Shown here one piece after another: positions 1 through 1,410 of a stretch of DNA of 52,090 bases. The stretch is from Patescibacteria group bacterium (GTDB lineage Bacteria; Patescibacteriota; Patescibacteriia; Veblenbacterales; UBA10138), in NCBI GenBank assembly GCA_041645215.1, contig JBAZQK010000001.1, forward strand, positions 1 to 52,090, read 5' to 3'. The notes beneath the pieces were generated by a model. That model worked only from the letters and a program-made list of their open reading frames with translations, was not told the origin of the DNA and made no database searches. Position 1 is the first letter of the stretch, and every line of letters begins with the position of its first letter. The translations under genes were made by a program, and so were the position numbers.

Positions 1-609
1 GATCAGCCTGTTATCCCCGGAGTAACTTTTATCCGTTGAGCTTCGACCATCCTATATTGGATCGTCGGATCACTAACTTCTGCTTTCGCAACTGCTCGGG
101 TTGTCGCCCTTGCAGTAAAGCTGGCTTATGGGTTTGCCCTACCACTCCCGTTTCCATCGGGAGCTAGCCAACCTTTGTAAACGCCTCCGTTACATTTTAG
201 GAGGCGACCGCCCCAGTCAAACTACCTGCCAGATACTGTCCCTTAGCCGGATAACGGCTTAAGGTTAGAATACTAAAAACATCAGGGTGGTATCTCACTT
301 GCTGGCTCTGTCCTAACCGGAGTCAGAACTTCAAAGCCTCCCACCTATACTGAGCAAACGGGCTTAATATTCAATACCAAGCTGTAGTAAAGCTTCACGG
401 GGTCTTTTCGTCTAGCCGTGGGTAACCCGCATCTTCACGGGTCTTGCAATTTCACCGAGTCCCTCGTTGAGACAGTCGTCAACTCGTTATGCCATTCGTG
501 CAGGTCGGAACTTACCCGACAAGGAATTTCGCTAGAAATATTACTAACTCTATCAAGTTAGCGGCGATCTTGTCGCCCTGCATGTCGCCATGCAGTCTGA
601 ACTCTATCT

Positions 610-1176
610 TCACTCCCGCCGAAACGGAGTGGTTGGCGTTTGGTTTCTGAGGATTCTAATTAAATTATTTTTAGATTTTTTATGATTCATTTGCTCCGAT
701 AATTTAAGTATCTTAATTAATCCTTTTCTCTCTAAATGCTTATTTTGACTCATCATTCTTACACACTGAGCAAATAACCTAAAATCATTATTCTTACTGG
801 TTTGTAAGTGGTGTTTCTCAAAGAAAGGGATAATCACACGCAGAAGATCTGCTCTTTTTCTAACAGCATACCGGTATAAATGTTCTTTATGATTATCATG
901 CCTTTGATTTAGGTATAAATTACCAACTCCAAAAAAGTTTCTAACTTTTTTCAAAGAGGATAAACTCTTCATACCTTGCGTGACGGCAAATTCATGCCAT
1001 GCTTGCACACCCATTCTATAGCCACGTCTTATTCGTAAAGACTCTTCTCGATCTGGTTGTTTTATAAAACCAATCGAGAAACAGCCCTCACCATCTACAA
1101 ATCCAACTATCCAACCTAATTTAATTAGTCTTTCCTGCTGATTGTCTGCACTAGTAGCATTATTACTTGTCGACAT
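610..1176 (-). CDS. Single-motif LAGLIDADG homing endonuclease (intron-encoded)
   Basis: Motif WIVGFVDGEGCF, 188 aa, inside the intron; its N- and C-terminal codons overlap the ribozyme Q and R elements. Confidence 0.95.
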   Translation of the reverse strand: MSTSNNATSADNQQERLIKLGWIVGFVDGEGCFSIGFIKQPDREESLRIRRGYRMGVQAWHEFAVTQGMKSLSSLKKVRNFFGVGNLYLNQRHDNHKEHLYRYAVRKRADLLRVIIPFFEKHHLQTSKNNDFRLFAQCVRMMSQNKHLERKGLIKILKLSEQMNHKKSKNNLIRILRNQTPTTPFRRE

Positions 1177-1182
1177 AATTTA

Positions 1183-1191
1183 ATTATATCA
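1183..1191 (-). promoter_or_regulatory. Extended -10 (TGnTATAAT) 6 nt before the homing endonuclease ATG; likely leaderless internal promoter
   Basis: Minus strand reads TTGATATAAT-TAAATT-ATG. Confidence 0.5.
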
Positions 1192-1410
1192 ACCTGTAGC
1201 TCTAGATTCAACAGAGTTTCCAGCATATAGCCAACTATTTTAAGACCATAGCACTATTGCGCTATGAGGCAGCTATTCCTATTTACTGCTAACCATTTAC
1301 CTGTTTATAACCGTCCCAGTCCTTCTGAAATCCTATAATACACCAGAATTCCAGAACCTTAGGACGGTTATAGTTACCGCCGGCGTTCATCAGCGCTTCA
1401 GTTCAAGGCT

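Follow-up and report, generated by a model that had tools for sequence, protein, structure and literature searches.

Group I introns bind guanosine at a G-C pair of helix P7 (G264-C311 in Tetrahymena), on which the terminal guanosine of the intron (omega-G) stacks as a triple after being positioned by helix P9.0 (PMC10020454). A swap of the 264:311 pair kills the Tetrahymena ribozyme in cells (PMC2860135). An A-U mutant accepts adenosine, yet such a change 'is not observed in nature' according to a 2022 review (PMC9971707). Here we describe a group I intron in the 23S rRNA gene of a Patescibacteria group bacterium (NCBI GenBank assembly GCA_041645215.1) in which the pocket pair is A-U and the last nucleotide is U, a combination conserved across a clade of relatives. 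The intron lies in the 52,090-nt stretch that we analysed (the window), which is the first 52 kb of contig JBAZQK010000001.1 (C20), and occupies site L1931, the site of a known lineage of introns with LAGLIDADG endonucleases (PMC1995217) and of insertion 23IS7 of the Candidate Phyla Radiation (CPR), whose rRNA insertions were reported to be absent from transcripts (PMC11270868). Our preferred reading, to which we assign a probability of roughly 45%, is that this is a working ribozyme that docks its terminal U on the A-U pair and would no longer depend on guanosine.

The closest functional analogue is the engineered Tetrahymena ribozyme G264A:C311U, which carries the same G-C to A-U change in the middle layer of P7 with the neighbouring layers unchanged. 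That mutant is man-made, whereas the window intron is natural, fixed in its clade and U-ending; it also belongs to a different intron subgroup and has a LAGLIDADG open reading frame (ORF) and a 5' extension that contains an exon guide. The engineered mutant reportedly prefers 2-aminopurine or adenosine, in work attributed to Michel et al. in 1989 and Been & Perrotta in 1991. The closest natural oddity is Cbu.L1917 of Coxiella burnetii (Raghavan et al., 2007), likewise a bacterial 23S group I intron without a terminal G, but at site 1917; it is said to end in A and, as far as is known, to keep the G-C pocket, whereas both the end and the pocket are changed in the window intron. SnLSU.1 of Simkania negevensis is likewise an L1931 LAGLIDADG group I intron from a bacterium with few rRNA operons, and, to judge from the title of the report only (Everett et al., 1999), it reportedly stays unspliced in the mature 23S rRNA. 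Canonical L1931 introns share with the window intron the site, the endonuclease family, the path of the ORF (from P5/P6 through P7, P3 and P8) and all but a few bases of the core. The A-U clade differs from them in its A-U pocket, its terminal U, a 4-bp P1 combined with an 11-bp exon guide, and the loss of two inner P7 pairs. We found no description of a natural A-U or U-A pocket in the literature, with the Simkania and Thermotoga introns standing outside this comparison.

The insert is 822 nt long (window positions 1355..534, minus strand, as are all features below unless stated) and separates the equivalents of Escherichia coli U1931 and A1932, with exon flanks CCUAAGGU and AGCGAAAUUCC. The 5' exon (1356..1385), comprising helix 69 and its linker, ends at U1931 (CGCCGGCGGUAACUAUAACCGUCCUAAGGU), as placed by alignment to RF02541 and by the empty junction in family relatives; the 3' exon (500..533) begins at A1932 (AGCGAAAUUCCUUGUCGGGUAAGUUCCGACC), as placed by alignment to RF00028 and direct reading. 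The uninterrupted junction, GTCCTAAGGT directly followed by AGCGAAATTCC, occurs in 5 of 10 genomes of the same family and is the ligated product expected here. The 23S rRNA gene itself (3646..1; RF02541, 1619.7 bits) is truncated by the end of the contig and continues on a second contig (C19), to which it is joined via a 127-nt overlap. No second 23S copy, intron-less or other, was found among the 26 contigs (1.17 Mb) of the assembly, so a spare intron-less copy does not account for the altered intron.

Within the intron lies an ORF of 188 amino acids (610..1176, from the ORF list) for a LAGLIDADG homing endonuclease (Pfam PF00961, 9e-20). From its start in the P5 region it crosses P4'/P6 and the loop of P6a, and its end falls within P8/J8/7. 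Its 4902 homologues include the ORFs of other L1931 introns, to which it is 59-73% identical, and are hosted by Doudna-, Azam- and Kerfeld-bacteria, Kazan and other CPR lineages. The exact U1931/A1932 insertion and a single-motif LAGLIDADG_1 ORF overlapping the core are the features of the L1931 lineage (CPR 23IS7 type), and the core helices show element-by-element homology, in conserved order, with canonical L1931 introns, bearing out the earlier assignment, made from the sequence only, to a group I intron at this site. The same comparison and the RF00028 alignment agree exactly with the coordinates and bases given in that reading. Features of an RNase III-type intervening sequence are lacking: the ends of the insert do not pair with each other, its 5' end pairing with the exon and with itself and its 3' end taking part in P9.0 and P10, and the insert has a complete group I core. 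We read it as a probably live and mobile intron, of the group I class, that belongs to the single-motif LAGLIDADG lineage found at L1931 in bacteria and, within it, to a CPR sub-clade in which two parts of the ribozyme have been rebuilt. It is an L1931 LAGLIDADG member by descent, and it lacks three marks of a canonical guanosine-dependent ribozyme, namely the G-C pocket, omega-G and a score above the Rfam cut-off.

The 5' strand of P7 consists of G647 (262 in Tetrahymena numbering), a bulged A646 (263), the pocket base A645 (264), A644 (265), C643 (266) and C642 (267), and the 3' strand of C599 (312), the pocket base U600 (311), U601 (310) and G602 (309). The pocket pair A645-U600 thus replaces G264-C311. 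In the RF00028 alignment, which sets UCAGAAACCAAACGCC against model UCAaAGACUAAAcGgC and GAAGAUAGAGUUC against model GAAGAUAUAGUCu, A645 falls under a model G and U600 under a model C. Of the four base-triple layers described for the Tetrahymena pocket (PMC10020454), the three others are kept: A644-U601 with A648, C643-G602 with A605, and G647-C599 with the bulged A646. The last letters of the intron are AAUAUUUCU, followed by exon AGCG, and its last nucleotide is U534 rather than omega-G, though P9.0 is present; the two possible registers yield U or C, never G, as had been read from the sequence only.

Comparison with canonical relatives fixes this alignment. Introns L004, L005 and L006 start with GGAAUAGCUGCCUUAG after exon GGU, form P1 as CUAAGGU/GCCUUAG with the U.G pair, and end in AAAUUCG before AGCG. 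Their P7 strands, UCAGAGACUA and UAUAGUCC, give G262-C312, a bulged A263 and G264-C311, and homologous L1931 introns with pockets GAGACCA/UGGUCC or GAGACUA/UAGUCC fix the window alignment base for base. A register that would restore a G-C pocket by using G647-C599 is ruled out, as the canonical relatives hold that 262:312 closing pair in addition to a separate G264-C311; an alignment restoring both G-C and omega-G, which would have undone the earlier proposal of a compensated double change at the guanosine-binding position, therefore fails, and the proposal is upheld by both the Rfam alignment and the canonical homologues.

We also considered other splice sites and another docked base. A 3' splice site after the nearest upstream G (UUAG, followed by UAAUAUUUCU) would alter the universal GGUAGCG, and P10 and P9.0 mark the U534-A1932 bond instead. 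A 5' splice site at U1926, the G.U end of the exon-guide helix described below, would alter the same universal sequence and disagrees with P10 and P9.0. Docking of A1932, suggested by a shifted P9.0 register and by the preference of an A-U pocket for adenosine, was rejected because the 5' flank (exon GGU followed by intron UCUG) has no A with which to restore the exon.

To place the intron among its relatives we compiled a census of 174 distinct L1931 3' halves (loci L002-L265) by scanning species genomes under protein guidance, searching metagenomes for a DNA pattern with position 264 left free, and making eleven single-protein look-ups; it derives from metagenome assemblies and is not a random sample. 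The A-U pocket occurs in 26 distinct sequences, all 26 of which end in U, and in 2 more whose 3' strand was missed by the pattern. About 75 protein clusters (at 90% identity) have the RNQT codons that encode A264, and when 400 genomes were sampled evenly across the phylum, the A-type element turned up in this genome only. An assembly or consensus error at positions 645, 600 and 534 of an ordinary intron is almost certainly not the explanation: the only point for it is the metagenome-type assembly in 26 contigs, and it is refuted by the comparative data, as the same three bases recur in 26 distinct sequences from independent projects and assemblers.

The tree of the non-coding RNA of the A-U clade is 5.85 substitutions per site long, and over it positions 264, 311 and omega are unchanged; for a site of average rate, the probability of no change is about 0.003. 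The terminal base is U in 26/26, whereas three or four different bases occur at each of the seven positions before it. The elements around the two P7 strands (R and S) are likewise invariant in 26/26. U311 and omega lie outside the ORF, and the ORF-less members L176 (361 nt) and L211 (430 nt) keep both elements. The pattern is that of purifying selection on 264, 311 and omega, to judge from these comparisons, and not that of a decaying relic. Conservation throughout the clade argues for a working ribozyme with altered recognition of its terminal base or nucleophile.

Among the 139 census introns with a G-C pocket, the terminal base is A in 61, G in 40, C in 26 and U in 12. Canonical members (for example L004, L006, L126, L146 and L182) combine the G-C pocket with a P1 of 7 bp and with a terminal G that P9.0 positions, and the remaining 99 of the 139 are without omega-G. 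These include introns from Solirubrobacterales/Thermoleophilia metagenome-assembled genomes, and the cultured Conexibacter sp. S30A1 (L083) has a G-C pocket and a terminal U. Coxiella, which the sequence-only reading gave as the natural exception to omega-G, is therefore far from alone, since most bacterial L1931 introns lack it. At the neighbouring sites in the same data the terminal base is G, in 39 introns at 1917 and 11 at 1923; a further 11 cases counted there as ending in U seem to reflect misparsing of a site that lies further upstream. That so many introns keep G-C without omega-G argues that they would still need guanosine for the first step of splicing, and that the A-U clade is a real departure.

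A third pocket, U264-A311, was found in six distinct sequences, four of which end in U (L029/L030, L254, L264 and L265) and two in C (L040 and L260). The nearest relatives of the U-A introns have a G-C pocket and a terminal A. L029 and L254 share with their nearest relatives of this kind a common tail architecture, UAACGAxxCA up to the last base, so pocket and end changed together there. In the RCHT/RCQT group the U-A pocket comes with G265-C310, and G265.U310 is seen in L262/L263, whose 3' end is missing; L261 groups with L260. In one C-ending subgroup the terminal C pairs with G313, as GGA with UCC immediately before exon A.

Across the census, non-G-C pockets (A-U and U-A) occur only with pyrimidine ends, and all 101 purine-ending introns keep G-C, which is also kept in 38 pyrimidine-ending introns. 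No C-G pocket was found among the 174. These counts bear on an explanation that we consider somewhat unlikely, in which the ribozyme works and its pocket reads no base: P9.0 and P10, perhaps together with the LAGLIDADG protein in the role of a maturase, would set the 3' splice site, 264:311 would be merely a Watson-Crick pair, the first step would use GTP at millimolar cellular levels with poor affinity, or hydrolysis, and the A-U/U combination would be drift frozen by descent. The occurrence of all four terminal bases on G-C pockets fits such indifference, as do a close pair of introns, L052 and L089, that differ in their last base only, the existence of G-C relatives with a terminal U, a possible single origin of A-U, and a P9.0 register that often takes in the terminal U. 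A terminal U that holds in 26/26 across 5.85 substitutions per site, next to variable neighbours, is not drift, and a purely structural pair would not be expected to stay G-C in every purine-ending intron, to depart from G-C only with pyrimidine ends and never to appear as C-G. In addition, G264A or a swap of the pair abolishes Tetrahymena splicing in cells with normal GTP (PMC2860135).

The history of the clade was examined in protein and RNA trees. The endonucleases of the A-U clade fall into two lineages (one-clade test rejected, p 0.001), and the A-U ribozymes, with the three diagnostic sites masked, are compatible with one clade (p-AU 0.83); with two ORF lineages on one possible RNA lineage, the RNA outlived at least one ORF exchange. 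Such a history implies that endonuclease genes are exchanged between L1931 introns, as judged from these trees. Several origins of A-U, which the protein tree had suggested, were dropped as the RNA tree allows one clade and the ORFs were probably exchanged. The ORFs of L139, L142, L143, L179 and L215 belong to a different lineage from those of the window intron, L021 and L025, and one of the two lineages is close to canonical L004/L006. The nearest G-C relatives that end in U share the tail AAGACGAUU, J7/9 CAUC and two P7 mismatches with A-U members such as L002. It is likely that the terminal U came first or was retained and the pocket changed later; alternatively, the pocket change was reversed in the G-C/U group. 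We had considered a rule for the relatives that carry the 5' extension (the extension clade), pairing G-C with A, A-U with U and U-A with C. It was rejected as it is broken by L253 and L256 (G-C, U) and by L254, L264 and L265 (U-A, U).

Under our preferred reading, the terminal G would have been lost first, with U becoming fixed in relatives that were still G-C, and the pocket would then have passed from G-C to A-U via a G.U intermediate. Splicing would follow the ordinary pair of transesterifications. The free nucleoside that makes the first attack, after U1931, would not be guanosine; the more likely candidates are adenosine/ATP, which the engineered Tetrahymena A-U mutant suggests, and uridine/UTP, which would mirror the terminal U. 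For the second step, P9.0 and P10 would place the terminal U so that it docks on A645-U600 in a U.A-U triple of the major groove, a classical arrangement for U on an A.U pair. More tentatively, we propose that this would be the first natural group I ribozyme with a re-specified pocket, started by ATP/adenosine or UTP/uridine and recognising its end by U.A-U, and that the U-A pockets and the G-C/C ends may be further settings of a 'triplex code'.

Several observations weigh against this reading. The nearest G-C relatives already end in U (L251, L253, L255, L256 and L257 of the RDQT type, plus L133 and L023), so a terminal U does not require A-U. Any terminal base can occur on G-C pockets in the family, and last-base docking may be weak or dispensable family-wide. 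The U-A pockets ending in C match no simple triple rule. A possible single origin of the A-U ribozymes leaves the link between A-U and terminal U unreplicated, and on the endonuclease tree pocket and terminal base give 3 well-supported independent contrasts and no significance. Of the covariation that the sequence-only reading had proposed between A264-U311 and a terminal U, the association itself thus stands, in 26/26 A-U sequences, and its statistical support does not, given the few contrasts and possible single clade. In the window intron and roughly half of its clade, the terminal U is not left free in the best P9.0 register but is paired to nucleotide 313, by A598-U534 in the window and by G.U in most cases. 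P7 is weakened to 3+1 pairs, with C642.A603 and A641.G604 mismatched. The RF00028 match of the window (716..578, E 8e-6) covers the 3' core only, as the ORF splits the model, and its 30.9 bits, like the 31.8 bits of the ORF-less A-U member L176, fall short of the Rfam gathering cut-off of 50 bits. The engineered A-U pocket of Been & Perrotta (1991) reportedly needed a terminal A, not U, for exon ligation.

The limits of the whole intron (534..1355) follow from the exon flanks and the partial RF00028 match, and within them helices P3 to P9 are present in conserved order and backed by covariation (for P3, 5/5 pairs in at least six sequence variants). The P2 hairpin, CAUAGC-GCAAUAGU-GCUAUG (1247..1266), was read from the sequence, and hairpins stand at the same place in relatives. 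It is followed (1220..1234) by the 5' strand of P3, UUGGC (1234-1230), J3/4 UAUAU and the 5' strand of P4, GCUGG (1224-1220). The 3' strand of P4, UCAGC (1137..1141), lies within the conserved ADNQQERL codons; P4 was assigned from the RF00028 alignment of L176, whose ORF-less core aligns over its full length from P3 to P9 (L176:1300-1549). The ORF-bearing loop is closed by P6a, in which CUAAUUAAAUU (1118..1128) is the perfect 11-bp complement of AAUUUAAUUAG (656..666). J6/7, A648 (261), and the 5' strand of P7 (642..648) are invariant in 26/26 clade members. The 3' strand of P3, GCCAA (633..637), covaries with its partner across the clade (UUGGC/GCCAA, CUGAC/GUCAG, CUAGC/GCUAG and UCGAC/GUCGG). 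The P8 hairpin, CACUCC-GUUUCGGC-GGGAGUG (611..631), is supported by RF00028 and direct reading. J8/7 AAGAUA and the 3' strand of P7, GAGUUC (together 599..610), lie outside the ORF and are again invariant in 26/26. J7/9 AGA (596..598) is the 5' strand of P9.0 and pairs with UCU 536-534, or as GA with UC 536-535; P9.0 covaries upstream of the terminal base as GGG/CCC, GUU/AAC, GGC/GCC, AUC/GAU and UGC/GCA. P9 (595-578, with a GCGA tetraloop, aligned by RF00028), P9.1 (577-563) and P9.2 (562-543) together span 543..595, and the nine-nucleotide 3' tail AAUAUUUCU (534..542) carries the terminal (omega) nucleotide U534. A 252-nt ORF-less intron of the extension clade (L008/L016, genome G023) has a G-C pocket and a terminal A and reaches 90 bits with RF00028.

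The second rebuilt part of the ribozyme is a 5' extension of about 80 nt, absent from canonical relatives and present in the CPR extension clade. Nucleotides 1-32 of the intron form a 12-bp hairpin (1324..1355; UCUGGAAUUCU/AGGAUUUCAGA), the base of which can be extended by a pair between U1931 and A1324. A linker conserved across the extension clade, AAGGACU (1318..1324), faces exon AAGGU and leads to an exon guide, GGGACGGUUAUA (1306..1317), that pairs with exon positions 1915-1926 (UAUAACCGUCCU), in the 3' strand of helix 69, 10-11 of 11 pairs forming in each relative. The hairpin and exon-guide helix together fold at -34.6 kcal/mol (z = -6.75). All extension-clade relatives have the splice-site hairpin, with entirely different sequences, and the guide covaries with the host exon, as in the exon/guide sets AACCGUCC/GGACGGUU, AAUCGUCC/GGACGAUU, AACGGUCC/GGACUGUU and AACGAUCC/GGAUCGUU. 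We also considered the AAGGU/AAGGACU internal loop as a kink-turn, and it does not match the consensus.

Further 3', GCU, the P10 partner of exon AGC (1932-1934), and then GCCU, the P1 guide for AGGU, occupy 1267..1273. This GCUGCCU is homologous to the canonical guide AGCUGCCUUAG and is kept in the clade. It gives a 4-bp P1, AGGU/GCCU, with the U1931.G wobble, together with P10 GCU:AGC, in competition with the hairpin pair U1931-A1324. As the canonical guide survives 3' of the extension, we read the extension as a probable insertion in the P1 loop that tethers the 5' exon, with no sign of an abnormal 5' splice site. The earlier suggestion that U1931 faces an A was correct in that the 12-bp hairpin is real; it is not the only P1, and the conserved 4-bp P1 keeps U1931.G. 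A second contact with the 5' exon, made upstream of P1, is to our knowledge undescribed for group I elements.

The same 5' structure bears on a further explanation, which we regard as improbable: that the ribozyme is dead or half-dead, and that the insert is either retained in the rRNA, as the Simkania L1931 intron reportedly is, or excised by host RNases, leaving a fragmented, unligated 23S rRNA, with the element surviving through its homing endonuclease. The long 5' hairpin and the exon-guide duplex could then be a substrate of the RNase III type, and the 5' junction lies within some 25 bp of duplex. The intron also lacks both of the residues that are the hallmarks of group I chemistry, its P7 is weakened and its Rfam scores are low, and RNases probably remove the several other, non-intron insertions of the 23S gene. 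Set against this, the core helices, base-triple layers, J8/7 and GNRA-capped P9 are all conserved, P3, P9.0 and the exon guide covary, and P9.0 and P10 converge exactly on the U534-A1932 bond. The core also persists in copies without an ORF, although a relic propagated by its endonuclease alone would have no use for it, and the intron ends do not pair mutually, unlike those of classical intervening sequences.

The 23S rRNA gene contains at least four more non-intron insertions (window 1413-1540, 2952-3110, 1690-1790 and 2330-2421). The first two have common ends, as do the last two; the end sequences are GCGCGCACAGCGCGCAAC... and TGTTG..CTGCGTGCTG..CACGC in one pair and ACAAAATTAGTG.GGGG in the other, and the four look like two families of intervening sequences. 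A match to the 5.8S rRNA model (3895-4051, 48.7 bits) lies about 250 nt upstream of the good bacterial large-subunit alignment, and from its position the 5' domain of the 23S rRNA seems to be set apart from the rest by another insertion. A second group I-like insert, ORF-less and 450 nt long, follows U2500 in the part of the gene on the second contig (locus L266, 167-616), between exon GGCACCU and CGAUGUCGG. It scores 33.9 bits with RF00028 and has, by eye, a G-C pocket (GAGAUUA/UAGUCU) and a terminal A.

Within the group I active site, only the guanosine-binding G-C pair is a sequence-specific constant, and a diverse, conserved bacterial clade has made the switch that was called unseen in nature (PMC9971707) and has replaced the terminal G as well. 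The insertion site is one that needs exact restoration, in the sole 23S rRNA gene of the assembly. If the introns do not splice, an essential single-copy 23S rRNA tolerates an 822-nt insert at the helix 69-71 junction or processes it otherwise. If they do splice, evolution can retune the single nucleoside site of the ribozyme, the sharing of one pocket by the two splicing steps could be studied in a natural setting, and these reduced bacteria might depend on ATP or UTP instead of GTP to mature their rRNA. The clade may thus represent the first natural ribozyme of its class with a changed cofactor pocket.

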